A stretch of DNA of 64,000 nucleotides, from contig CAXXFV010000007.1 of the NCBI GenBank assembly GCA_963674595.2, positions 63,280 through 127,279 on the forward strand, written 5' to 3'. The notes beneath the pieces are model-generated. The model worked only from the letters and a program-made list of their open reading frames with translations. It ran no database searches and had not been told where the DNA came from. The stretch is from a bacterium. Lineage in GTDB: Bacteria > Zhuqueibacterota > Zhuqueibacteria > Residuimicrobiales > Krinioviventaceae. A program made the position numbers and the translations under genes. Positions 10,784 to 25,867 of the stretch are shown here, piece by piece (position 1 is the stretch's first letter; each line of letters begins with the position of its first letter).

Positions 10784-11018
10784 TTACAATTCAGATGAAT
10801 ATTATTCATTAAAGATAATCAAAACAAAGTGGAAATCAAGTGAAATTAAGAATTTTTAAGATACATTCGATTGGCTGCAATACTTTTCACGTTGTGAAAA
10901 AGATTAAAATTTTCAATATTAAAAGTATTGAATAAAAATGGCTTGATTATTATTTATATGAACACCATTTTACGCAGTTAATATTCAGGTATCAGATAAA
11001 TTTTAAGGATCTAAAAAT

Positions 11019-14000
11019 TTGAATCTGTTTTGTAAAAAAAAGCTTTTTATACATATCATATATTTCTTTTTGTTTATTAATATATTACCGCTTTGTGCTT
11101 TTGATATTTACGTCCCGGAATTCAACGATCCCATGGAAGAAGCCTGGCGCTGGCAGGTTTTCCCGGAATTAAGCGGAAGAGGGTGCCGGTGCATGGTGGA
11201 AGATGAAAACGGATTGTTGTGGTTTGGCGTTAATGGGGGACTGTTACGTTATGATGGATTGGAATGGGATTATATTAAATTAAATAACGATTCAACTAAA
11301 ACAAATGTGGTGGCTTTATGTGCTGCCGGGGATGGCTCCATTTATGTCGGAACGCCGGATGGAATTTACCGGTTTATAAACGGCACATGGAAACAGTTTG
11401 ATTGTGATTTGGGTTTTGGTGATACTTTGGATTTTCCCAACAACATGTTTCCCATTGTTGAAGGTTCGGATCATTCAATTTGGGTTGGTACACACAAGGG
11501 TATGCTGCGCATTAAAAACAATTTAATGACTTTATATAATAAAGACCAGGTTTTTACGGATTTTAATGAAAAGACCGGCGTTCCTGAAGAAATACCTTCC
11601 TTTAACGTATTCAGTATTTATGAACAAACACCGGGAAAAATATGGTGCGGGTTACGCGATGGACGGATTTTTATTTATGAATTTAAAAATGATAGTATAA
11701 ATATTCCGCCGGTAATAAAACAAATCGATAGGGATAAAGGATATAAACGCGCTCAATTTCCGTTTATAATCGGTGCAGGGGACGAAAATATTTATATAGC
11801 CAGCGGGCAAATAGACAGGGGCGTTAATGTCTATGAAAATTCCGAATGGAAGACAATCCGGTTCAGTCAAATGTTCGGGCTGGATGATCTGCATTCCGAT
11901 GCGCTGGTTTCAAAAGACGGAACCGTTTGGGTGGCAAGTTTCGGATGTGTTTTTGCCTGTAAAAATGAAAAATGGTACATGTATAACGGGCCCGGATTAC
12001 GGCTTCCGGCCAACCGGTGGAATTTGTATGAAACCACAAACAACAGTTTATGGATAATCGGTCTGGGAAATGAGGTTTGGCGGGTTGATTTATCAAATGA
12101 TAAATGGAAGACTTTAAAAGGTCTGCATTTTCACACTCAAAACCGGAACGGGGATTTGTGGTTTATCGCCTGGGACGATGCGGTTGTAACATGTGATTCT
12201 TCGCTGCAAAACTGGAAACAGTATACAACCAAAGACAATGTGATCGATTGTCCGGTGTCTGTTCTTGCCTCACAGGATGGTAAAATTTGGGTAACCGGCA
12301 GCGATAATCAGACGGCAGCAATTTCCTGCTATAATGGTGAAAAATGGGTCAAATTTTTACATCCGGAAATTTCCTGGGGAATCGGTCGCCGGGCTGTTTT
12401 AGAGGCACAAGACGGGTCTCTCTGGTTTGGGACGGGTCCCGATTATAGCTTTGGCAATGGACATCTGGGGGGATTTGTGAGATATAAAAATTATCAACAT
12501 ATTTTTGAAACAGGTCCTGAACTGGAGTATCATCATTTTAATGACTCATTACGTCTCAGCGCAATTTATGGCATCGGCCAAAGTGCAAACGGATTGATCT
12601 GGACGGGACAGCTTGCCTGTTATAACTATGATCAAAATATAAAAAAATGGTCACGCGTATTTGAGCCCAAAGGTCTGGATGAGAGTTTTATTGACTGTAT
12701 TTATACCTCACCGAATGGAAATTTATGGATTGGAACAAGGACCAGTGGGGTGTTTTGGTATCTCAGCGAATTGAATGAATGGAGACAATTCACACGAAAA
12801 GATGGTCTTTCAAGCAACTGCATCGTCAACATTTTTGCCAAATCAGATTCCAATGTGTGGGTGGCAACCGACCAAAACATTTGTCATTTTGACGGCTTTA
12901 GCTGGACGGCTGATGTGTTTCCCAGCTTTTTTCGAATAACCAAAGACGGCATTCTTATAAAATCCACTGACGACGGCGCTTTCTGGTTTAATCAAATTCC
13001 GCAGCCCTGGATTAAACGGGCCATAAATCGTAAAGCCGTGTCACAGGAACTGGCTTCCGAATATATCACCATTCGATATATGCCGGATGATGTTCCGCCT
13101 GAAACAGTCATAACATATTCACAAGACCGGATTGCACATCCGGGAAATGTGGTATTGTCCTGGACCGGTCACGATCCCTGGAGATCAACGCCTGATGAGC
13201 TGTTACAGTATAGCTCTCGATTTGACGGCAAAGACTGGTCACCTTTTAATTCGGGAAAAAGTCATATATTTTTAAACGTCAGCGACGGGAAGCATAAATT
13301 TGAGCTTCGCGCACGCGACCGGGACATGAATATTGATCCCGTCCCGGCGCAAGTTGTTTTTTACGTTAATCCGCCTTTGTGGAAACAATACTGGTTTTTG
13401 GGTTTGATATTTTTCTTTTTAGCAACAATAACCGGATTCATTATCTACCTGGTACACCGTAACAATATTATTAAAGAATTGTCGGAATCCAAGGTGCGCT
13501 TGTTTGCAAATATTTCCCATGAACTGTGTACGCCGTTAACGTTGATTGCCGGACCGGTTAAAAATGTCTTAAAGACATTAGATCACAAATCGTCTTTATA
13601 TCAACAGCTTTCCATGGTCAGACGGAACTGTGATCGTTTAATAAAACTGGTCAGCCAGATTATGGATTTTCAAAAAATTGATTCCAACACATTAATGTTT
13701 CTTCCTCAAAAAAGTAATATTGTCTCTTTTATAAAAGATATATTTGATTCTTTCCAACCGTTGGCTTGTGACAAAAAGGTAAATTTTTTATTCAAATCGG
13801 AATTAGATTCGCTTGAGATGTTTTTTGATGGAGACAAGATAGAAAAAATATTTTATAACCTTTTTGCAAATGCTTTTAAATTTACACCGGAACATGGGAC
13901 CATTTCTATAACCATTCAACGAATTTTGGATAATCCGAAATTAAAATTAACATCAGAAAAGGATAAACTCGTTATTACTGTTAAAGACACGGGTATGGGA

Positions 14001-15053
14001 ATTCCGGCTGAAAAAATAGACAAAATTTTTAACCGTTTTTATCAGGTAAACGAATCGATTACCCAGGCAGGCGGTGCGGGAATCGGTTTGTCCTTGACAA
14101 AAGAACTGGTTGAGCGGCATCATGGTAAAATTGAGGTGCAGAGTTTTCCTGAACAGGGCACAGAATTCAGGGTTATCATTCCCATACTATCCGAATATAA
14201 AAAATCAGTTCCAACCCACATTATTGAACCGGACATAATGGAACATGAAACCGCAGCTTTAATGGTTGATTCAAACACATCAACGCCAAAAAATGAAAAG
14301 TTGAAAATACTTCTTGTTGAAGATAATGCAGATATGCGTGCGTTTATCAAAAGTGAGCTTGATTCCATGTATCACATTGTTGAAGCCGTTGACGGTCAGG
14401 ATGGTCTGCAAAAAGCGGTTTCATATACACCGGATATTATCCTCAGCGACATTATGATGCCGAATATGAACGGCATTGAAATGTCAAAAAAATTAAAGGC
14501 CGACTATCAAACCAGTCATATACCCATTATATTATTAACGGCGCGTTCTTCTCAGGAACATAAAATAAAAGGTTTGGAAACCGGCGCTGTGGATTATGTT
14601 ACAAAACCGTTCAACAGCAAAGAACTCGAACTACGCATCACCAATATAATTCAGTCACGCAAAAACCTGTGGCAGCGTTTTCACCGTGAGGATTCCGTAA
14701 AACCGGAAGAATTGAGTATCACTTCGGTGGACCAGCAATTTTTAAAACGCGCTGTCGACCTTGTTCACAAAAATATGGATGATCCGGAGTTCAATCCTCA
14801 AATCTTTGGAGAAAAAATCGGTATGAGCCGTGCCGGGTTGTATAATAAAATAAAAATGCTAACCGGTTATTCTGTCAGAGATTTTATTATCTCCATTCGT
14901 CTCAAACGGTCGGCACAATTGTTAAAAGAATCCGGTATGACCATTACACAAATTGCCTATGAAGTCGGATTTAAAGACCCGTCACATTTTACCAGGGCCT
15001 TTAAAAAACAGTTTGGTGTTCCGCCCTCCGAGTTTGCAAAAAAATCAGAATAA
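11019..15053 (+). CDS. Hybrid two-component sensor kinase/response regulator (beta-propeller sensor, Y_Y_Y, HisKA, HATPase, REC, AraC HTH)
   Basis: Repeated LW(F/I)GT propeller blades, a TM helix, ISHELCTPL H-box, GAGIGLSL G-box, SDIMMP receiver, and C-terminal IAYEVGFKDPSHFTRAFKKQFG AraC HTH. Confidence 0.95.
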   Translation: MNLFCKKKLFIHIIYFFLFINILPLCAFDIYVPEFNDPMEEAWRWQVFPELSGRGCRCMVEDENGLLWFGVNGGLLRYDGLEWDYIKLNNDSTKTNVVALCAAGDGSIYVGTPDGIYRFINGTWKQFDCDLGFGDTLDFPNNMFPIVEGSDHSIWVGTHKGMLRIKNNLMTLYNKDQVFTDFNEKTGVPEEIPSFNVFSIYEQTPGKIWCGLRDGRIFIYEFKNDSINIPPVIKQIDRDKGYKRAQFPFIIGAGDENIYIASGQIDRGVNVYENSEWKTIRFSQMFGLDDLHSDALVSKDGTVWVASFGCVFACKNEKWYMYNGPGLRLPANRWNLYETTNNSLWIIGLGNEVWRVDLSNDKWKTLKGLHFHTQNRNGDLWFIAWDDAVVTCDSSLQNWKQYTTKDNVIDCPVSVLASQDGKIWVTGSDNQTAAISCYNGEKWVKFLHPEISWGIGRRAVLEAQDGSLWFGTGPDYSFGNGHLGGFVRYKNYQHIFETGPELEYHHFNDSLRLSAIYGIGQSANGLIWTGQLACYNYDQNIKKWSRVFEPKGLDESFIDCIYTSPNGNLWIGTRTSGVFWYLSELNEWRQFTRKDGLSSNCIVNIFAKSDSNVWVATDQNICHFDGFSWTADVFPSFFRITKDGILIKSTDDGAFWFNQIPQPWIKRAINRKAVSQELASEYITIRYMPDDVPPETVITYSQDRIAHPGNVVLSWTGHDPWRSTPDELLQYSSRFDGKDWSPFNSGKSHIFLNVSDGKHKFELRARDRDMNIDPVPAQVVFYVNPPLWKQYWFLGLIFFFLATITGFIIYLVHRNNIIKELSESKVRLFANISHELCTPLTLIAGPVKNVLKTLDHKSSLYQQLSMVRRNCDRLIKLVSQIMDFQKIDSNTLMFLPQKSNIVSFIKDIFDSFQPLACDKKVNFLFKSELDSLEMFFDGDKIEKIFYNLFANAFKFTPEHGTISITIQRILDNPKLKLTSEKDKLVITVKDTGMGIPAEKIDKIFNRFYQVNESITQAGGAGIGLSLTKELVERHHGKIEVQSFPEQGTEFRVIIPILSEYKKSVPTHIIEPDIMEHETAALMVDSNTSTPKNEKLKILLVEDNADMRAFIKSELDSMYHIVEAVDGQDGLQKAVSYTPDIILSDIMMPNMNGIEMSKKLKADYQTSHIPIILLTARSSQEHKIKGLETGAVDYVTKPFNSKELELRITNIIQSRKNLWQRFHREDSVKPEELSITSVDQQFLKRAVDLVHKNMDDPEFNPQIFGEKIGMSRAGLYNKIKMLTGYSVRDFIISIRLKRSAQLLKESGMTITQIAYEVGFKDPSHFTRAFKKQFGVPPSEFAKKSE

Positions 15054-15091
15054 TCCGAATTATTCCCGGGGAATTTTATAAATACGTTTTG

Positions 15092-15125
15092 TTTAGACGC
15101 ATATACCGAAAATTTAGATGCATGT
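15092..15125 (+). promoter_or_regulatory. Direct repeat, putative AraC/HTCS operator
   Basis: TTTAGACGCATAT (15092) and TTTAGATGCATGT (15113), 21-bp period, between the HTCS and the symporter gene. Confidence 0.6.
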
Positions 15126-15259
15126 AAAAGCATTTTATTTATATTATCGTATATTTAAATTGATATGATTTGGTTTTTTATGTGCTGAAATTTTGTTATT
15201 CAGTTTTCAAACGAGTATTTAATCAATAGGAATATTGTTAACTGTAAATCGAGGTAAAC

Positions 15260-17447
15260 ATGTTTGGACTTCCGTTAATCGATTTGATTGTTATTGTCGT
15301 TTATTTTACTGTTGTCATTTTAATCGGTGTCTGGTCAATGCGCCGTATTAAAAACCAGGAAGATTATTTTCTGGCCGGCCGTCGCTCCGGGAAAATCATT
15401 CAAACTTTTGCTGCGTTCGGACAGGGGACATCGACAGACAATGCGGTTGGTGTCACCACCACAACCTATACAAACGGCGCCGGTGGCATCTGGAGTTCAT
15501 TGTTGCTGCTGTTTGCCACTCCCTTGTATTGGATGACATCACCCTGGTTTCGCCGGCTGCGAGTTCAAACGATGGGTGATTTTTTTCATGATCGTTATAA
15601 TTCCAAAAAAATGGCGGCATTGTATGCGGTGATCGGTTGTGTTTCCATTATGGCAACAATATCCATCGGATTTAGTGCCATGACAAAAACCATCGTTGCC
15701 ATAATCCCCAAACAAGTTTATGAACTAAACGAACAGGAAAGAGCGGAATATAACAAGGCATTGGAACACGAAATGCTGAAAAAAAGCGACTATTTGCTGT
15801 TGTCTGAAGCAGAAAAAGATCGATTAACACAACTGGACGTGGAAAAACCAAAAAAGTTATTTCCGCATGTCAGCGAAACAGCCGTGGTATGGATTGTATG
15901 TTTGATTGTTATGTTATATGCTGTTGCCGGAGGGTTGGAAGCGGCTTTCCTCTCGGATACGCTGCAGGGATTTTTTATCATTATTTTATCGTTCATTCTG
16001 TTACCCTTTGCCTATGGTAAAATCAACTCAATTTACGGGGGTGACACTATGATGGATGCCTTGCGGACCATTCATCACCGCTTACCGGAAGCTTTTTTTG
16101 ATTTGTTTGGTTCACCTACCTGTATCGATTTTACCTGGTATTATGTCGCGGCAATTTCATTCATGTTTACGATTAATGTTGTGATGAATCCCAATATGCT
16201 GTTAACTATTTCAGCAGCCAAAGACGAATTTACAGCACGGTTGGGATTTACCAGCGGCAATTATATGAAAAGGTTTTGTACCATTTTGTGGGGTATGCTG
16301 GGTTTGGCGGCTGTTGTTTTATACGCTGATCAGGTCCATAATCCGGACCTTGTCTGGGGATACACCACCTATGATTTATTAGGATCGTTAAATATGGGGC
16401 TTTTGGGATTGATGATTGCCTGTCTCATGGCAGCGCTCATGTCAACGGCAGATTGTTTGATGATAACCGCTTCCAGTTTAATTATTCATAATTTGTATCG
16501 TCCGTTTACCCGTGAAAGAAGTGAAGAGCATTATGTCTTTGTCGGCCGAATAGCCGGTGCAGGCGTGGTTATCGGCGGGGCTATTATCGCCACCCAGTTT
16601 GACAGCATTTTACAAATGCTGAAATTTACCTGGGAGTTTAATGTTGTTGTTGCCGCCAGTTTTTGGCTTGGCATGAAATGGCGCCGGGCCAATCGAAAAG
16701 CTGCGTGGGCATCAATATTGACGACGATGATGGTTTTTATGATTGGTTCGATTTTTACACCGGTAATTTTCCCTTCTCTTCGCACAAATCCCTATTTGCT
16801 TAAAATGACGAACCCCGAGCCTTTGGAACGAGTTTTTACCGCCCATGACCGGGACGTTGAGATGCGTGAAAAAGAGATTTTAAAATGGAATGAATTGAAT
16901 GAAAAGGGCCTTGCACAAACTGCTGAACCGCAACCTTTAAAAATTGGCGAAAAATTTGTTTAAAATTGACCGTCTTCCTAAAAAAGCGATTTTTTGGACA
17001 CAGGGCATAAAATACGATAAGGACGGCCAAAAATATGGCGCCGGGATGATCAGTTTGGAGCTGATTCTTGTGGACAAATTCGGATTTAAACTGGAGAAAA
17101 ATCCCTATGCCTTTAATGAAACAATCCGTGTTATTATTCGAACGATTACACCCTTTTTAATTTTGATCCTGACCGCACTTTTAACACGTCCGGATGATAA
17201 AAAGTATCTGGACCGGTTTTATGTAAGAATGAAGACAAAGGTCAATTCTGATCCTGAAAAAGATAAAGAGGAAATAGCCCTGTCTTATAAAAATCCGCAA
17301 CGGTTTGATCATCACAAACTTTTTCCAAATTCGAACTGGGAACTTTATAAATGGGACAAGGAAGATACCATTGGTTTTGGGGCGGCTGTTGGTGTTTTAT
17401 TTTTGATAATTTTAATGCTGAAATTTTTAGTGAATTTAGGCGGATAG
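15260..17447 (+). CDS. Sodium:solute symporter (SSS) family transporter, split by one extra T near 16958-16961
   Basis: EDYFLAGR, VAGGLEAAFLSDTLQ and LMAALMSTAD SSS motifs. Removing one T from GTTTAAA joins ORFs 15260..16963 and 16944..17447 (KFVKIDRLP). Confidence 0.9.
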
Positions 17448-17456
17448 GAGTTATAA

Positions 17457-17482
17457 GAGGCCGTTTCCCGAAAAGCGGCCTC
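17457..17482. terminator. Stem-loop, likely terminator
   Basis: GAGGCCG...CGGCCTC just after the symporter stop and just beyond the stop of the duplicated radical SAM 3' end on the other strand. Confidence 0.6.
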
Positions 17483-17499
17483 CTTGCATTTTTGTAATT

Positions 17500-17624
17500 T
17501 CAATTAAATTTCCTCAAATAAAACTCTGTTTCGTTATACTCGGAAACTACAAGCCGGTTCGAATGAACAAGTCCTTCCACAACTGAAAAATTTGTACCTG
17601 ATTTTTCTGTTAGTTCCGGCAGGG
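17500..17624 (-). pseudogene. Orphan 3'-terminal fragment of the radical SAM gene (left copy of 112-bp direct repeat)
   Basis: 17506-17617 matches 21049-21160 at 108/112 nt and encodes ...ELTEKSGTNFSVVEGLVHSNRLVVSEYNETEFYLRKFN*. Confidence 0.9.
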
Positions 17625-18047
17625 CTGATTTCTCTATCGGGCGTACCAATGATATGTATTATGCTCTGCATGATTCAGGGGTAGAGCATAATTATAATAT
17701 GTTTTTGATCCGAACATCAAAATAAAATATTGCCGTAAAAATGTTACCATTTCTTAAAATGTCCTTGACAATTTCATAAAAACAGTTAAATTAAAGTAAT
17801 TATCCAAAAAATTTTAACCAGGCGGTCTTGATATTTAAAAAATATTTGTGAAAATCAGGTACGATTTTAATTCAAGTATTTAAGTTTGATTTTAACCTGT
17901 ATTATGTTTTTGTAACAGGCTATTGTTTCAAAGCTTTATCAATACATTGATTTTTAGCTGATTATATTTGATAGTGTTTTACTAAAACAAAGTATAAAAC
18001 TGATCCACCTTTAGTATTAAAGCCAATTATACTATTTATTAGGCTCC

Positions 18048-18542
18048 AGGTTAGCAACCCTAAAAAAATTAAGGAGATCAATTATGAAAAACACATTTTT
18101 CAAAATTTTAGCAATTACCATCCTTGTTTTAATCTTTTCTTTTAATAGTTCTTATTGCTACACCGGTGCATGGGTTACAGTAACACAATATACAGACGCT
18201 AAGCTGGAGGAATTCGTTTATCTTACTCCGACAGCATTAAATGTTGATTATGAACTTCACATTTCCTGGAATTATAATACCGGCAGAATTTATGCGGAAG
18301 CGACTCTTAATGATGGATATGATGATGAATGGAGTTGGGTTGAAAGTGCTCGGGCAGATTATTTTTGCAGTCCTGATCCGATATTTGGCGAAACAGGGCA
18401 AATTCTGTCAGGGGCATGGGCTTATGCTTATGCTGAACGAAAAAATTCCAATGCGACGATTTGTTCATGGGCGTTCTATTCTTATTAGTTTTTATTCTTT
18501 TTAAAAAATAATTAAATAGGTCGGTTTTAGGGTTGCTAGCTT
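18048..18542. repeat. Inverted repeat pair enclosing RBS and gene 1
   Basis: AGGTTAGCAACCCTAAAA (18048-18065) and TTTTAGGGTTGCTAGCTT (18525-18542): 18 bp, with the 2 non-Watson-Crick positions both G-U compatible. Confidence 0.9.
18084..18488 (+). CDS. Secreted 134-aa beta-rich hypothetical protein, paralog 1
   Basis: AAGGAG RBS, Sec-type signal peptide, aromatic-rich strands, clear homology to the next gene. Confidence 0.85.
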   Translation: MKNTFFKILAITILVLIFSFNSSYCYTGAWVTVTQYTDAKLEEFVYLTPTALNVDYELHISWNYNTGRIYAEATLNDGYDDEWSWVESARADYFCSPDPIFGETGQILSGAWAYAYAERKNSNATICSWAFYSY

Positions 18543-18780
18543 TTATTTTTTTAATTCGATTAAAATTTAATAAAATTTTTGATCATAAGCTTTAAGAAGG
18601 GAAATATGGCATAACGATATTTTCTGTTTTGGTAGAGATGTTCCAGTTTTCATTTTTTTCAAGACATCTTTGATTCTTTTGGTTACCAAAGGAAATTGTT
18701 TTACATGTACAACAACAGGTGCATTGTTAATATAAAATTGATCCATTATAAATAAATAACAACATTTTTATTAATATTGC

Positions 18781-19277
18781 AAGTTAGCAACCCTCAAAAA
18801 AATAAGGAGATCAATTATGAAAAATAAATTTCCTATATTTTTTGCTATTATTATTTGTTTATTAATTTTTAGTTTTACGAATTCTTATGCCGTTACTACC
18901 GGGGCATGGGCGACTATTGGCTATGGACCTCCAACAGAAAAAGAAGATGAGGAGTATCTTACTCCTGCAACCGGCGTTGCCTGGGAACTACATATCTCCT
19001 GGAGTAATAATTCTGGATACGTGTCGGCAGAGGCGACCATTAATACCAATGGTGATGGTGTCTATAGCTGGGTTGAAACTAACAGAACCGAGGCATCATA
19101 TAGTCCTGAACCGGAATGGGGTGAACCCGTTAACATTTATTCAGGCGCTACGGCCTATGCCTATGTAAAAAGTACGAGTGCGAATACTACGGGTTTGTTC
19201 CTGGGCTTTTTATACCTGGTAATTTTAATATTAAATTAAATTTAAATTTGTAGCAAAGTTAAAAGGGTTGCTAACTT
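18781..19277. repeat. Inverted repeat pair enclosing RBS and gene 2
   Basis: AAGTTAGCAACCCT (18781-18794) and AGGGTTGCTAACTT (19264-19277): perfect 14 bp. Confidence 0.9.
18817..19222 (+). CDS. Secreted 134-aa beta-rich hypothetical protein, paralog 2 (extra G at 19191-19193)
   Basis: Removing one G gives ...ANTTVCSWAFYTW* (stop 19220-19222), matching paralog 1 ...SNATICSWAFYSY* and the same 134-aa length. Confidence 0.85.
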
Positions 19278-19318
19278 TTTATAATTGTTTATGTGTAGTA
19301 TTTTGCGAGGAAGTCAAT

Positions 19319-21015
19319 ATGAATGGTAGATTTTTTTCATTGATAATAGTTTTCTTTTTTGGATTTATGTTATTTTGCTCTGATCCTGATAAAAATATAA
19401 AAGAAAAAATTGTTCTCAAATTAGCTAATATTGAAATTACTCATTATGAAATGCAAAAAAAGAATTGACAGGTTCAAAAAAAAATACAAGCAAATATACC
19501 GGCAAGATGCACCAGCGGATTCTATTGAATCTTATATAAACAGTTTTGCAGATGATGTTTACATATTAGCTGAAGCCTTTAACCGGGGATATTATAACGA
19601 TGCTGATATTGATTCTCTGGTAGATTTTATGACCCGAAAAATTTTAACACAGCCAAAACGTGGTCAGGTGTATGAGAGATTGATCCTGGATCGTGTTTAA
19701 AATCACGGATGATATACTTTATGATGCTTTTAATAAAAACAAAAAAGAGTTTAAATTAAAAATATTAAAATTTGCCGACCATCAGGATATGCACAAAACT
19801 CTGGGACCGGACACGCTTTTATCTTTGGAACGTTTTGAAAAAGTTGCCCATGAAAATAAAAACAGTCAATTTGTAAATATATTTGAAGCGCCTTTTATTT
19901 GGCCGTCTTATGGTATTTGGAAAGTCCAGGATAAAATATTCCAAATGAAAAAAGGTGAAATTTCACCTCCTTTACATGCTAATGATGGTATTTATATCAT
20001 TTATGTTAAGGATATTAGTACAAGGAACCAAAAAACATTTGAAGAGGAACGTCCATCTCTGGAGTGGAGTTTAAAAAATATTTATGAGGAAAAATTATTT
20101 TTAGCGGTAAATGATTCGATGTTTAAAGCTTGCAATCTGGTTATTAATAATGATGCTTGTGAGGAATTTTTTAAGCTGATTCCATCTTCTTATTCTGTAA
20201 TATTAGAAAAAGAAACGTTTGCAGAAATTTTGGGTGATACGATAGAAACCTATCAGTATGACAATGAAAAAAACAATGTTACGGTTGATGGATTTTTAGA
20301 TTTTTATTCAAAATGTTTAATTAAAAAACCAATAATTTCAAAAGATATGTTAAAAGATTATTTAAAAGAGCTGGTTAGGGAAAAGTGCTATTATCAATAT
20401 GCAAAAAATCATAACATTTTAGAACAACCCCAATTAAAACTTGATATAAAAAATTATAAAAATAAAGTTGTTTTGTCAAAATTCATTGACAATGAGTTGA
20501 AAAAAAATATTAAAGTTTCTGAAGACGAACTATTACATGAATATGAAAATAATATCAATTCTTTCAAGCAGGTGAAATCAATAATTGCTAATTTGTTTTA
20601 TTTTAATTCCGATCATCATGCATATAAGAGCCTGGAGAAATTAAAAAACTGTTCTGTTGATAGTATTAAATATATTACTAAAGATGGAAATCTGAACGGC
20701 TTGTTAAAGACAGAGTTTAATAGAAAATTAGATTATAATAGTTCATTGTTTAATGAAATGATTTCAAATAGAATACAAAGACTGCGACCCGAACAATTTA
20801 GTTTTCCTCTCAGACTAGAGGACGGATCTTTTTTAATTGTACAAAAATTAAATGATCAGGGTAACGTTATTAAATCTTTCGATGAGGTACGAGACTATTT
20901 AAATAAAAAATTACTTGATCTCAAAGTAAATAATGAAAAACCGCTTTTTATTAAAAGTTTGAAAGAGAAATATACACCTGAAATTTCTGTGGATAAAAAA
21001 CAGTTTTTATTGTGA
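19319..21015 (+). CDS. SurA/PrsA-like parvulin peptidyl-prolyl isomerase/foldase lipoprotein, split by two +1 indels (near 19455 and 19697)
   Basis: GAGG RBS and ATG 19319; lipoprotein-like signal (FMLFC); KIFQMKKGEISPPL...GIYIIYV and FSFPLRLEDGSFLIV...KSFDEVR parvulin-like motifs. Three ORFs join on removing one A and one T. Confidence 0.78.
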
Positions 21016-21045
21016 TGTTTTTATAATAGTTATAATCAGGAAAGC

Positions 21046-21979
21046 TCAAAATTTTCTCAAATAAAACTCTGTTTCGTTATACTCGGAAACTACAAGCCGG
21101 TTTGAATGAACAAGTCCTTCCACAACCGAAAAATTTGTACCCGATTTTTCTGTTAGTTCCAATAGGGCCTGTTTGGTCATCGGATGTACGGATGTTATGC
21201 TCAAAATGTCCTTTTCAATGTTTCCGGTGTATGCAAAATCATTGCCCTCGTAGCCTGTTAGATATTCTACCCGGTCAAAATTTGACTGGAAAATTTGATA
21301 CAGTTCAATCAGCTTTTGTCCTTCAGGCGGCTGGGTACGTTTTTCTGCCGGGGGCCGAATGGGTATGCTGATATAGGATTTTTCCGGATTTATTCCTTTA
21401 ATAAACAGAGATACATTTTTTATGTTCTCTGGCGAATCATTTAAATCTTTTACCAGCATGGTTTCGGTAACGAGCGTGCCGTTAAATTCTTGTGAAAATT
21501 GAAGGATGCCCTTGAATATATCATCGAGACTCAAATCTCTTACAGATCTGTTTATTTTTCTCCACAACGCAGAATCGGCGGCATCAACTTTAACAGAAAC
21601 CCAATCAGCCTGACATAGTGCATCTCTGACATGCTGTGAATGTATAAGCGATGAATTGGTAATAACGGCGATTTTTTTCCCAAACTGTTTCAAGGTTTTT
21701 ATCAGATTACCAAGATTTTCATCCAATGTCGGTTCACCGTCTGCGACAAAAGTCAGATAATCAATGGTTTCTTTGTTTTTTTTCAGCATTTATTATTTTT
21801 TCCTGTACGTCATTGATAATCATTTCAGGATCATAAAATGTCTGTCGTTTTGATGTCATTTTTCCGGCTTTACCCAGTTGACAGTAAACACAGGAATATG
21901 TACATGCCTTTGGTGGTATATTGTTAATGCCGATGCTTTTTCCCAATCGCCTTGATGGAACAGGTCCGAATGCAATCAT
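21046..21979 (-). CDS. Radical SAM protein (COG0731/TYW1-like Fe-S oxidoreductase), split by an extra base near 21776-21783
   Basis: FGPVPSRRLGKSIG, CTYSCVYC (CxxxCxxC), DGEPTL and AVITNSSL motifs. The two ORFs join on shortening an A8 run. Confidence 0.9.
21049..21160. repeat. Right copy of 112-bp direct repeat (current 3' end of radical SAM gene)
   Basis: Matches 17506-17617 with 4 substitutions. Confidence 0.92.
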
Positions 21980-22432
21980 ATCAAATCCTATAATAATATT
22001 AGTTCTTAACTTTTATATATTTTGTAAACCAAATTTATAAACCATGCCGGTTTTTCAAAAAAAACATAAAGTAAAATAATAACTGTTATCGGCACGGGAA
22101 TAAATACGTCGAATACCATTAAAATCAACAAAACAATTAATGTTATGGTTTTTTCTTTCATAACGATCCATGTTTTTTGTATTAAAGTTATCTTTTTTAA
22201 AGCCGTTTGAATGTAATGAAATAAAAATAAAATCCAATAAAAAAATGTCCTGTGAGTTTTATGAAAAAAGATTAAAATGATTTTGTGGTTTTTATTTATT
22301 AAGTAGTATTTTATAACAGTTTTTTTTATTTTTAACGGATTCCTTCAAATCCCTGAAAAAAGAAAATTATTTTTATTACTTGCCCGATAACTCCTTTTTG
22401 AAAATATTATATATACATTTTTTATCTGAAAC

Positions 22433-23929
22433 TTGGGAGATATGATGAATAAATTAGGTATATTAGTTTCTATCCTTTTTTATTGTATTTTTTGTTTTAA
22501 TGCAGCAGGGCAGGATTCTACCCATGTCATTGATATTTCGTCTCAAAAGCAGCTTTTTATAGATGATCTGCTGATTGAATCGTGTCGTGGAATAAGCAAA
22601 ACCATGAATCTACCGCACCAATATGATGAAATTTTATTAGAATGTGATCAGCCCTGGGAAGCCGGACCGGAAAGTAAAGTTGCTGCTTATAGCAGTGTCT
22701 TGAAAGAGAAGAATAAAATTCGATTGTGGTATGATTTGTATAACAGCAAAACGAAAGAACGTTGTGTTGCTTATGCGGAATCAGATGACGGTTTGCATTT
22801 TAAAAAACCAAAGCTTGGCTTAATTAATGTTAACGGTTCACGGGAAAATAACCTGGTTATACCCGGCACAATCGGCGGGTGTTCCGTCTGGATAGATAGG
22901 CATGCTCCGGAGAATGAACGATATAAAACCCAGGCAAAAATTTATCCAAGCCAGGAATTCCAAATTCACACTTCTGCTGACGGACTCAACTGGAAGTCCT
23001 TTGCCAAGCCGAATATCGGTAACAAAGACACGCAAACAATTATATTTTGGGATAGTGCTGTATCAAGATATGTTATGTACACCAGAAAGTGGTTTAAATT
23101 CGAAAATAAAGATGATAATTTTAGATGTGTGCGTCGATTAGAGTCTGATGATTTAGTCAACTGGGACAATGAGATGATTGTTATGGAACCGGACTCTCTG
23201 GACAGGGCTTTGTATAAAACACCAACCGGTCAGTTGCCGGTTGATTATTATGGCGCGCTGGTTTTCAAATACCCGAATGATCAGGGAATGTATATGATGC
23301 TGGCGCAAACATTTTGGCACTGGTTTGGCCGACAGCCCCTAAACCGTTTGGGACCGAATGCTATTGATGTCAGACTGGCTGCAAGTCGGGATGGTAAAAA
23401 GTTTTCTTTTTCGGGCAATCGTATGCCGTTTTTAAACCTTGGACGCGAGGACAGTTTTTATTCCAAAATGGTATGGGCTTTGCCGAATCCGGTTATTATG
23501 GATGATGAAATATGGATATATTTTGCCGGAAGCAATCAGGACCATGCCGGATATTTAGATCCTACAGTAAAGAGTTTCAAGTCCGGAATAGGACGTGCTG
23601 TTTTACGGCTGGACGGATTTGTTTCAATAGACGCGGACTTTCAGGGCGGAGAGATCATTACACCGTTATTAAAGTTCATGGGCAAAAATCTTGAACTGAA
23701 CATGCAAACCAGTGGCGGCGGATGTGTTCGTGTTGAAATTCTGGATGAAAAAAACCAGCCTATTGATGGCTTTCAATTGTCTGAAGCTGTTCCTCTTTGT
23801 GGAAATTCGGTACGAATGCCGGTTAAATGGGAACAAACAGATGATGTGAGCTGTTTGTCCGGAAAAACTATAAAATTACGTTTTGTTATTAAAGCCTGCA
23901 AGTTGTATGCTTTTCAGTTCAAACAATGA
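22433..23929 (+). CDS. Secreted beta-propeller glycoside hydrolase-like protein
   Basis: Signal peptide; Asp-box-like motifs (AESDDGLHF, TSADGLNW, ESDDLVNW, SRDGKKF); C-terminal GRAVLRLDGFVS...LYAFQF. True start probably 22442/22445. Confidence 0.65.
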   Translation: MGDMMNKLGILVSILFYCIFCFNAAGQDSTHVIDISSQKQLFIDDLLIESCRGISKTMNLPHQYDEILLECDQPWEAGPESKVAAYSSVLKEKNKIRLWYDLYNSKTKERCVAYAESDDGLHFKKPKLGLINVNGSRENNLVIPGTIGGCSVWIDRHAPENERYKTQAKIYPSQEFQIHTSADGLNWKSFAKPNIGNKDTQTIIFWDSAVSRYVMYTRKWFKFENKDDNFRCVRRLESDDLVNWDNEMIVMEPDSLDRALYKTPTGQLPVDYYGALVFKYPNDQGMYMMLAQTFWHWFGRQPLNRLGPNAIDVRLAASRDGKKFSFSGNRMPFLNLGREDSFYSKMVWALPNPVIMDDEIWIYFAGSNQDHAGYLDPTVKSFKSGIGRAVLRLDGFVSIDADFQGGEIITPLLKFMGKNLELNMQTSGGGCVRVEILDEKNQPIDGFQLSEAVPLCGNSVRMPVKWEQTDDVSCLSGKTIKLRFVIKACKLYAFQFKQ

Positions 23930-23963
23930 TGATTTGTAAAAATTAATATATAGGAGCTGATTC

Positions 23964-25013
23964 ATGAACAACACCAAATCACTGCCTGTAGAAATTGTTT
24001 TTCAACCGTCCTGGTGGTTTCATCATGAAGGATTGACTTTTGACGAGGATTTCTTTTTTCATCCGCTAAAAAGGGTGGAGGCTGAAAGAAAAATGGAAAA
24101 GGCCCTATACGATAGATGGGGACAATATGGCTTTGGCTGCGATAAAGACAAAGACCTGCCGTTAATCGGCGCCACTCATTTGGCTGCCGGATTTTTATTG
24201 TCTGAAATGCTGGGCTGTCATGTAGAATACAAACAGGATACACCTCCTCAGGTTGTTCCTGCTCATTTTGAAAAACTCTCTGTTTCGGCTGATAAAGCTT
24301 TTCAAACAAATGCTTTTAAAAAGCTTGAAAATCTTGTCGAGAGTTTAAAAAAGAGCTATGGTTATGTTACCGGTGATGTTAACTGGGGCGGTATTTTAAA
24401 TCTGGCGCTTGATTTACGCGGGGATATTTTTTTTATCGATCTGTTTGATAATCCGCAGGATTCTATAAAATTCCTCTCTGAAATTAATAATGTCATCGAA
24501 CAATTTACAGACTATATGTTGTATAACACAGGTTCCACATCCATAAGTGTGAATAGAAATGTACACAATTTTGACAAGCGTGTTTTTCTTCACAGCGAGT
24601 GCAGCCATACCATGATTTCAGTTGAAGATTATGAAAAATACTTGCAGCCGTTTGATATAAAGTGGAGCCAAAAATATCAACCCTATGGCATTCATTATTG
24701 CGGACCGGACCCCGACAGATATGCCGAATCCTTTGCCAAAATACCACAGTTGCATTTTCTGGATGTGGGATGGGGCGGTGATATTGCCGCCCTGCGAAAA
24801 CATTTGCCCAATACATTCTTAAACATTCGGCTGAGTCCGGTTGATATTGTTAACCAATCGGAAGAGGAAATTCGGACCAGTATTATCGAACGTGTGACCG
24901 CATCCGGTAATTTAGAACTTACCGGTGTGTGCTGTATTAACATGGATGAACATATCACTGATAATAAAGTGACAACAATACTGGAAACTGTCCGGGACCT
25001 CTGGCAGGCATAA
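23964..25013 (+). CDS. Uroporphyrinogen decarboxylase/methyltransferase-like hypothetical protein
   Basis: GGAG RBS; LALDLRG, MISVEDYEKYLQPFD and GIHYCG motifs resemble URO-D/MtaA-type barrels. Confidence 0.55.
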   Translation: MNNTKSLPVEIVFQPSWWFHHEGLTFDEDFFFHPLKRVEAERKMEKALYDRWGQYGFGCDKDKDLPLIGATHLAAGFLLSEMLGCHVEYKQDTPPQVVPAHFEKLSVSADKAFQTNAFKKLENLVESLKKSYGYVTGDVNWGGILNLALDLRGDIFFIDLFDNPQDSIKFLSEINNVIEQFTDYMLYNTGSTSISVNRNVHNFDKRVFLHSECSHTMISVEDYEKYLQPFDIKWSQKYQPYGIHYCGPDPDRYAESFAKIPQLHFLDVGWGGDIAALRKHLPNTFLNIRLSPVDIVNQSEEEIRTSIIERVTASGNLELTGVCCINMDEHITDNKVTTILETVRDLWQA

Positions 25014-25084
25014 CACCGCCCCTTTGCGGTGGATTGATATAAATTTTTAATTATAATTAGTGTTGTGATAAATTTAAACCATCT

Positions 25085-25867
25085 GTGGAGAATACTATGC
25101 GACAATTTAAAACAGCTATTGTTTCCCTCGTACTCTTGATTACCCTGAGTTCTGTTTTTGCTTTAACTGATGAGAAAACGCAGTATAAAACAACAGTTCC
25201 GACGATTCAAACCGTAGAATGGGCTGTGAAATGGTGGGGACCACGACATGAAGAAAAAGTTCAACAGGTTAAACAGGGAAATGTGGATTTGCTTTTAATC
25301 GGTAATTCCATAACTCACGGCTGGGAAAATGAAAATGGTATTAATGTGTGGAACAAATACTATAAACACCGCCATGCCGTTAATCTCGGATTCAGCGGAG
25401 ACCGAACCGAACATGTTCTCTGGCGTTTACAAAACGGAGAAATTGATAATATTTCACCCAAACTCGCAGTGGTAATGATCGGAACAAACAATACCGGTCA
25501 ACGCCGGGACCCGGTTGAAGAAACAGCCGCCGGCGTCAAAGCGATTCTTGATCAAGTGCAAAGTAAATTACCTGAGACGAAAATTCTGCTGCTGGCAATT
25601 TTCCCCAGATCAGAATTGCCCGGTGATTCTCTTCGTGTGATGAATGAAGAGATAAACAATATTATTTCCGGATATGCCGATAATCAGCGTATCTATTTCC
25701 TGGATATTAATGATAAATTTCTTGATGACAACGGAGTCCTCACCAAAGAGATTATGCCTGATTTTTTACATCCCAATGAAAAGGGATACCGGATTTGGGC
25801 GGAAAGTATGGAACCGATGGTGAGTGAATTGCTGGGAGACCAGGCTGTATCGAATTGTTCTGAATAA
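25085..25867 (+). CDS. SGNH/GDSL esterase (PAF-acetylhydrolase IB-like), secreted
   Basis: IGNSITHGW, GFSGDRT, MIGTNN and DFLHPN catalytic blocks; signal peptide. Confidence 0.92.
   Translation: MENTMRQFKTAIVSLVLLITLSSVFALTDEKTQYKTTVPTIQTVEWAVKWWGPRHEEKVQQVKQGNVDLLLIGNSITHGWENENGINVWNKYYKHRHAVNLGFSGDRTEHVLWRLQNGEIDNISPKLAVVMIGTNNTGQRRDPVEETAAGVKAILDQVQSKLPETKILLLAIFPRSELPGDSLRVMNEEINNIISGYADNQRIYFLDINDKFLDDNGVLTKEIMPDFLHPNEKGYRIWAESMEPMVSELLGDQAVSNCSE

Follow-up and report, generated by a model that had tools for sequence, protein, structure and literature searches.

A gene-end repeat with two apparent ages borders a recombinase-free 3.5-kb islet behind a radical SAM gene

A bacterial contig (CAXXFV010000007.1, assembly GCA_963674595.2) carries a 3.5-kb islet between two same-orientation copies of the 3′ end of a radical SAM gene, which raises the question of how this DNA came to lie at a gene end and leave the gene intact. 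We addressed this in the window, meaning the whole 64,000-nt stretch that was analysed, to which all positions refer. The repeat that borders the islet has two ages. At a probability of about one half, we favour a reading in which the unit of 3,543 bp was genuinely inserted where the radical SAM gene ends, in two steps within one clade, with host recombination responsible for at least the last step. An insert of about 3.5 kb with a displaced and a replacement 3′ end had already been proposed in an original prediction for this locus, and the unit measured here agrees with it.

The gene-end repeat

On the minus strand, 37 codons from the end of the radical SAM gene occur twice: positions 17506–17617 match 21049–21160 at 108/112 nt, with an offset of 3,543, and the left and right copies encode the same protein (37/37 amino acids (aa)). 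The four mismatches, at 17512, 17560, 17584 and 17599, are third-position transitions (AGG/AGA and three TCA/TCG), all of them synonymous, exactly as originally described. In self-BLAST of the window, this was one of only two repeat pairs with E<1e-5. The right copy ends with a TGA (21046–21048) directly after the last shared codon, whereas in the left copy an additional codon, AAT (Asn), precedes its own TGA at 17500–17502. That stop faces a G+C-rich hairpin next to the convergent symporter gene (Table 1), both of which had been predicted; the hairpin, probably a terminator, starts 9 nt after the stop of the symporter and is separated by 17 nt from that of the left copy. The 37-residue end is specific to the clade, the best of 198 relatives sharing 20/37 residues compared with 37/37 between the two copies, and both repeat ends evidently originate from the host's own clade. 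If every change had hit a neutral orphan copy, the probability of four synonymous changes out of four would be 0.003–0.015; with in-place divergence of a constrained gene and a neutral orphan, it would be 0.02–0.07. Coding constraint on both copies, as originally claimed, is thus supported by this statistic but not overwhelmingly.

The original prediction placed the end of the repeat at 112 nt. That block is correct, but the homology was overlooked where it continues, ungapped, for a further 39 nt (17618–17656 against 21161–21199; 24/39 identical), giving a total repeat of 151 nt. The next 100 nt match at 22/100 only, and an extension as good as this shoulder was obtained for 4 of 100,000 random window stretches. 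Identity therefore steps from about 96% in the fresh block to 62% in the shoulder (108/112 against 24/39; Fisher p=2.6e-7). Shoulder mismatches are spread over codon positions 1, 2 and 3 (4, 5 and 6, respectively), and the shoulder has lost H265, a residue kept in 198/198 relatives, together with T262 and S263. It most likely descends from the gene of the host clade, because it retains K269 (33/198 relatives) and L272 (8/198), which are rare in the family and present in the host protein. Third positions differ at 4/37 sites in the fresh block and at 15/39 sites in the shoulder (p=0.008), a contrast indicating that the two parts separated from the host gene at different times. The left copy is a hybrid, in which a decayed arm that arrived with the cargo meets, at 17617/17618, a 3′ end that was functional until recently, and by sequence comparison the repeat has two ages. 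A further hairpin abuts the end of the homology, beginning inside the last bases of the shoulder. As plus-strand RNA it has z −3.7 (0/200 shuffles), against −0.7 for the minus strand and −1.9/−1.6 as DNA; it may act as an operator or as a further terminator.

Table 1. Features of the islet, its bordering repeat and its flanks
Feature	Positions	Strand	Evidence and remarks
Sodium:solute symporter, host flank	15260–17447	+	PF00474, E 4e-32; TIGR00813; one frameshift near 16960
G+C-rich 10-bp hairpin	17457–17482	.	z −5.4 on +, −3.4 on −
Left copy, fresh part: last 37 radical SAM codons, AAT and TGA	17500–17617	−	108/112 nt, 37/37 aa
Left copy, decayed shoulder: 13 more codons in register, non-functional	17618–17656	−	24/39 nt
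Hairpin, 12-bp stem continued past a 4-nt bulge, abutting the homology end	17651–17704	+	RNA z −3.7
Cargo unit 1: putatively secreted 134-aa orphan open reading frame (ORF; 18084–18488) with flanking elements	18050–18540	+	hydrophobic N-terminus
Cargo unit 2: paralogous 134-aa ORF (18817–19222) with flanking elements	18783–19275	+	one extra base near 19190
PPIC-type peptidyl-prolyl isomerase (PPIase), SurA/PrsA-like predicted exported chaperone, three frames here	19319–21015	+	PF13145, E 2.6e-16
Right copy: working radical SAM 3′ end with TGA	21046–21160	−	record P0002 ends likewise
Radical SAM gene, 310 aa when intact	21046–21979	−	PF04055; P0002, 99%; frameshift in an A-run near 21780

A two-step origin

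Insertion at a coding site, as originally proposed, holds, but one event does not suffice: a single insertion leaves the 39-nt shoulder unexplained, and two events of different age are therefore needed. In a first, old step, the genes for the secreted proteins and the PPIase would have arrived behind the radical SAM gene together with the gene end of a clade-mate, pushing the resident 3′ end, at least 151 nt of it, to the far side, where it would have decayed to about 62% identity. A second, recent step would have been an exchange between the islet-bearing chromosome and an allele with an empty site. One of its joints would fall in ordinary flanking homology, and the second at 17617/17618 or slightly further 3′ in the gene. 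As a result, the left end would carry the last 112 nt of one functional allele and the right end those of a second, with 39 nt of the dead copy remaining between the fresh block and the cargo; two functional alleles at the two ends would leave synonymous differences only. The agent might be a homologous anchor combined with a short-homology joint, or a single crossover through the 112–151-nt repeat, and no dedicated recombinase would be required for the second step. Throughout, the gene would remain intact, and recombination between the two repeats could later remove the unit. For type VI secretion system (T6SS) and Rhs loci, displaced 3′ regions have been modelled as products of homology-facilitated illegitimate recombination (PMC5361080), a process that PMC2884548 also describes.

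What argues for renewal of the fresh block is its low divergence: a single capture with a fixed crossover predicts a fresh block as synonymously diverged as the shoulder, which is not the case, so something must have renewed it. We infer the order of events, their polarity and the enzyme. On this reading the fresh part of the left copy would be the displaced, recently functional 3′ end and the right copy the replacement. That the left copy is the older end has circumstantial backing: it has the hairpin context, in line with the original prediction, and 190/198 relatives run on beyond the last residue of the right copy. At the right end only 30 nt separate the PPIase stop from the radical SAM stop, and no stable hairpin was found in these non-coding nucleotides.

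Several points weigh against the two-step reading. Its polarity and timing rest on one sequence, and the synonymy disfavours in-place divergence at p 0.02–0.07 only. The G+C content of the small ORFs (38% and 42%) is host-like, the low-G+C signal of the islet not being theirs. A block that ends at the last sense codon and carries mostly synonymous changes is the pattern of integrase elements, as in e14, and integrase genes are often deleted. Finally, homologous recombination is reported to exceed homology-facilitated illegitimate recombination in frequency by orders of magnitude (PMC5361080).

If the two-step reading is true, the locus shows clearly how recombination of two alleles by the host can create or renew an integrase-like footprint, here a duplicated gene end whose differences are all synonymous, which calls for caution in calling att sites from gene-end repeats alone. 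The decayed shoulder also offers a simple signature, searchable genome-wide, that would separate one-step integrations from re-transferred islets. Current understanding is not overturned by the locus. A more speculative extension, which we consider doubtful, is a recombinase-free shuttle: a 3.5-kb circle that would repeatedly leave and re-enter the radical SAM gene of one clade by host recombination, its coding 3′ end serving as an attachment site that renews itself. Whatever lies downstream of each crossover would then have to encode a working enzyme and be refreshed from hosts, whereas the upstream part would decay, giving the 96%/62% step. Such a shuttle would carry clade-restricted small secreted β-proteins and a dedicated chaperone, with mRNAs closed by 5′–3′ pairing.

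Recombinases and known integrative elements

The absence of a recombinase, noted in the original prediction, was borne out across the window, beyond which the contig continues. None was found by NCBIfam among the 44 window ORFs, or by Pfam among 16 + 18 proteins, which included five short spacer frames and yielded no remnant; tblastn of e14 IntE and PinE gave no match in the six frames of the window. Among seven proteins searched against PHROGs, none matched a structural, replication or regulatory gene of phages; the only matches were to an unknown-function family, for the PPIase, and to radical SAM families. Near the identity step the best dyad matches at 7/9, with one of the four mismatches in its spacer; 620 of 2,000 random windows score as high. 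The inner ends of the unit share A+T-rich 9–10-mers only, with no convincing common arm-type repeat. No Rfam match was obtained at 15000–23000, and no tRNA or tmRNA gene in the window. The radical SAM protein had 11 plasmid matches and one phage match, all below 40% and all stopping short of the last 40 residues; the islet DNA had no match in the plasmid collection. We also considered the template and variable repeats of a diversity-generating retroelement and rejected them: the coding-strand A allele lies on the right at two sites and on the left at two, all differences are synonymous, and no reverse transcriptase occurs among the 44 ORFs.

The footprint is nevertheless of a known kind, with an anatomy like that of e14 and icd–icdC, where a working gene stands at one end, a same-orientation orphan 3′ fragment at the other, and the block ends at the stop; only the decayed shoulder and the orphan cargo are unusual here. 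In a direct comparison, the E. coli K-12 e14 locus had an icd/icdC block of 165 nt with 12 differences, 10 of them synonymous. Upstream of that block identity is at background (3–10 in 21-nt bins), whereas the present locus has bins of 12 and 15, then 20–21; e14 thus lacks a decayed shoulder. It also spans 15.2 kb and encodes IntE and XisE, compared with 3.5 kb without recombinase or phage genes here. Reports on e14 describe icdC and synonymous changes left after its excision (PMC13626634, PMC6379469), and att identity blocks of up to about 250 bp are described when attP carries replacement sequence, as at icd (PMC10111431).

Likewise, Islander/TIGER islands, at tRNA/tmRNA or protein-coding targets, are defined in PMC4383910 by a restored gene, a displaced fragment and an integrase. 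The present islet shares the restored target and displaced fragment that mark the ends, in the same, correct orientation and on the correct side, and a length above the 2 kb given for such islands; it differs in that no site-specific recombinase, needed in that definition, is encoded among the islet and window ORFs. The Rhs, contact-dependent inhibition (CDI) and T6SS loci of PMC5361080 resemble it in that DNA anchored in a conserved gene pushes the resident 3′ region downstream without an integrase, but the new 3′ end there is described as a different toxin domain with an immunity gene, whereas here the same 37 residues recur with unrelated cargo. PMC12924846 reports attB sites in radical SAM genes for the Streptomyces phages Samy, PhiJoe, PhiOZJ and PhiWTR; these are described as full phages with their own integrases, and the likeness lies in a radical SAM gene as target, at superfamily level. 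No publication on the present target family or on a decayed shoulder was found in the open-access literature.

Loci of the radical SAM family

The family of the radical SAM protein is large and uncharacterised: of 8,000 candidates scored, 7,691 were hits. Apart from the 99% record P0002, the nearest relatives of the protein among the matches listed are 51–59% identical. Some family records are labelled ‘wyosine synthetase (radical SAM superfamily)’, but identity with the TYW1 wyosine synthase was rejected, as TIGR03972 scored 35.4 bits against a cut-off of 317.95. Of 587 confirmed family loci we compared the 80 best, which represent many phyla and have 50–58% aa identity. At least 1 kb of downstream DNA was available at 71 of them, at least 4 kb at 48 and at least 9 kb at 34, and nine were too short for the duplicate scan. 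The suggestion that the family is a recurrent insertion hotspot was not supported: no 3′-end duplicate occurred at the 71 loci with at least 1 kb downstream (best 35/60, compared with 59/60 here), and none of 127 downstream ORFs, drawn from 71 loci, was a recombinase. The loci are distant relatives, and the result is silent on a hotspot limited to one clade. No close tandem radical SAM duplicate was present at any of the 80 loci, one of which (L034) has a distant radical SAM paralog nearby (29% identity). The cargo, the symporter halves and the neighbours had no match at the 80 loci, except for a generic histidine kinase.

Downstream neighbours differ widely among these loci. A second radical SAM gene follows at 8 of the 71, as the first ORF in L005, L013, L025, L029, L034, L035 and L050 and as the second in L024; other recurrent neighbours encode metallo-β-lactamase-fold, HypE/AIRS-like, FeoA/FeoB and ParA–Fe-S proteins, hinting at metal-cofactor metabolism. 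Two kinds of match were rejected as candidate gene-end duplicates. Those at L003 and L010 fall in the N-terminal cysteine-motif region, and the short matches at L064 reflect a dispersed repeat after the stop; this repeat, which starts where the family gene stops, lies at positions 10926–10960, 12567–12600 and 20243–20280 of L064.

Alternative explanations

The most serious alternative, possible though we hold it to be the less probable account, is a remnant or satellite of a tyrosine-integrase element whose attP carried the gene 3′ end, with a crossover near 17617 and 21160, an integrase since deleted or acting in trans, and a shoulder left over from a captured fragment. Its anatomy would equal that of e14 and icd–icdC, identity blocks of up to about 250 bp with replacement sequence are described for in-gene integrases (PMC10111431), and integrase and att function are reported to be often lost (PMC6379469). 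Against it stand the lack of any recombinase or remnant in the window, a right end with just 30 non-coding nt, a dyad no better than many random windows and the family loci, with neither duplicates nor integrases. Moreover, the fresh block is too little diverged for one capture, and a homologous refresh would be needed anyway.

Direct repeats 3.5 kb apart are substrates for gene conversion, and one old duplication–insertion followed by in-place conversion of the orphan by the working gene over 112 nt, the four differences arising later or through allele exchange, would explain the identity step without a second transfer. We regard this as unlikely: a converted orphan should gain non-synonymous changes (the 0.02–0.07 above), and the left copy retains its own stop and extra codon, with 190/198 relatives extending past the point at which the right copy stops. 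An ancestral tandem pair of complete radical SAM paralogs, of which one was afterwards deleted or replaced by cargo, fits a left homology that is longer than first described (151 nt) and the nearby paralog at L034. A single deletion, however, would leave a remnant of uniform age and not a 96%/62% step, and the 80 family loci show no close tandem duplicate, making this origin very improbable. Least probable of all is an assembly artefact that created the repeat or merged two strains. The consensus is noisy, with five frameshifts in about 7 kb, and closely similar strains exist (P0002 and P0121). The errors seen, however, are indels and not synonymous substitutions; an in-register decayed shoulder is unique sequence, beyond the reach of collapse or merging; and other records hold the right-copy gene end and both small proteins, although their adjacency is not displayed there.

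The cargo

The islet contains two paralogous 134-aa ORFs in tandem and the PPIase gene. The two small proteins are 50% identical, and the first 125 aa of the second equal an intact record, P0123. Their hydrophobic N-termini (helix 2–21 in the model) suggest signal peptides; the remainder is predicted to be all-β, at a pLDDT of 57, and, as no Foldseek match reached E<=0.001 and the best VIA Z was 4.8, we assign no fold. A search with the small ORFs gave one hit among two candidates, and a profile search of 1.84 billion representatives found no convincing relatives beyond their own records; two weak profile matches to long repeat proteins (E 2e-5 and 2e-4) were not trusted. Best Atlas scores for the small ORFs were 0.85–0.86, which we treat as leads only.

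The PPIase has one relative, P0122 (555 aa, 29% identity). Its region 19693–21015 has a G+C content of 27%, and 23% at third codon positions (GC3), and the islet as a whole, at 30%, is the lowest of 607 sliding windows, driven by the PPIase and the spacers. The same region matches phrog_16409, of unknown function (E 2.5e-16), indicating that related domains occur in phage-derived sequence.

Each small ORF is bracketed by complementary 12-nt elements (18050–18061/18529–18540 and 18783–18794/19264–19275), 22 nt ahead of the ATG and 40–41 nt past the stop, with a T-run after the 3′ element. The element has four matches in the window against 0.19 expected. Pairing of the flanks would give RNA duplexes of 18 bp and 14 bp, with G–U pairs in unit 1, and the flank duplex energies rank 1 and 3 of 36 genes. 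These elements weakly suggest 5′–3′ mRNA pairing, in two related copies only. An integron cassette array was rejected, as the elements of adjoining units are 242 nt apart and there is neither an Rfam match nor an integrase. The AAC triplet, which we take to be a mark of attC sites, is absent from the 3′ element of unit 1.

Host genes and flanks

The five frameshifts lie near 16960, 19190, 19460, 19700 and 21780, four of them at short homopolymer runs, and break the frames of the symporter, second small ORF, PPIase and radical SAM genes. Two are missing from other database records (P0002 and P0123), and we therefore read these as consensus errors and not pseudogenes, and infer the same for the other three; the pattern is consistent with long-read consensus errors. 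The records from closely similar strains, P0002 and P0121, differ by two and one residues, respectively.

Fused LpxC–FabZ, a type IX secretion system (T9SS)-type sorting domain and UpxY give the window genes the look of a Gram-negative, probably Bacteroidota-related group. At 11019–25867, genes for a hybrid two-component sensor, the symporter, a glycoside-hydrolase-like protein, a URO-D-like protein and a GDSL esterase all lie on the plus strand. They look like one sugar-use cluster whose continuity is broken by the islet, a 51-aa ORF and the radical SAM gene, the last of which could have arrived there earlier in its own right.

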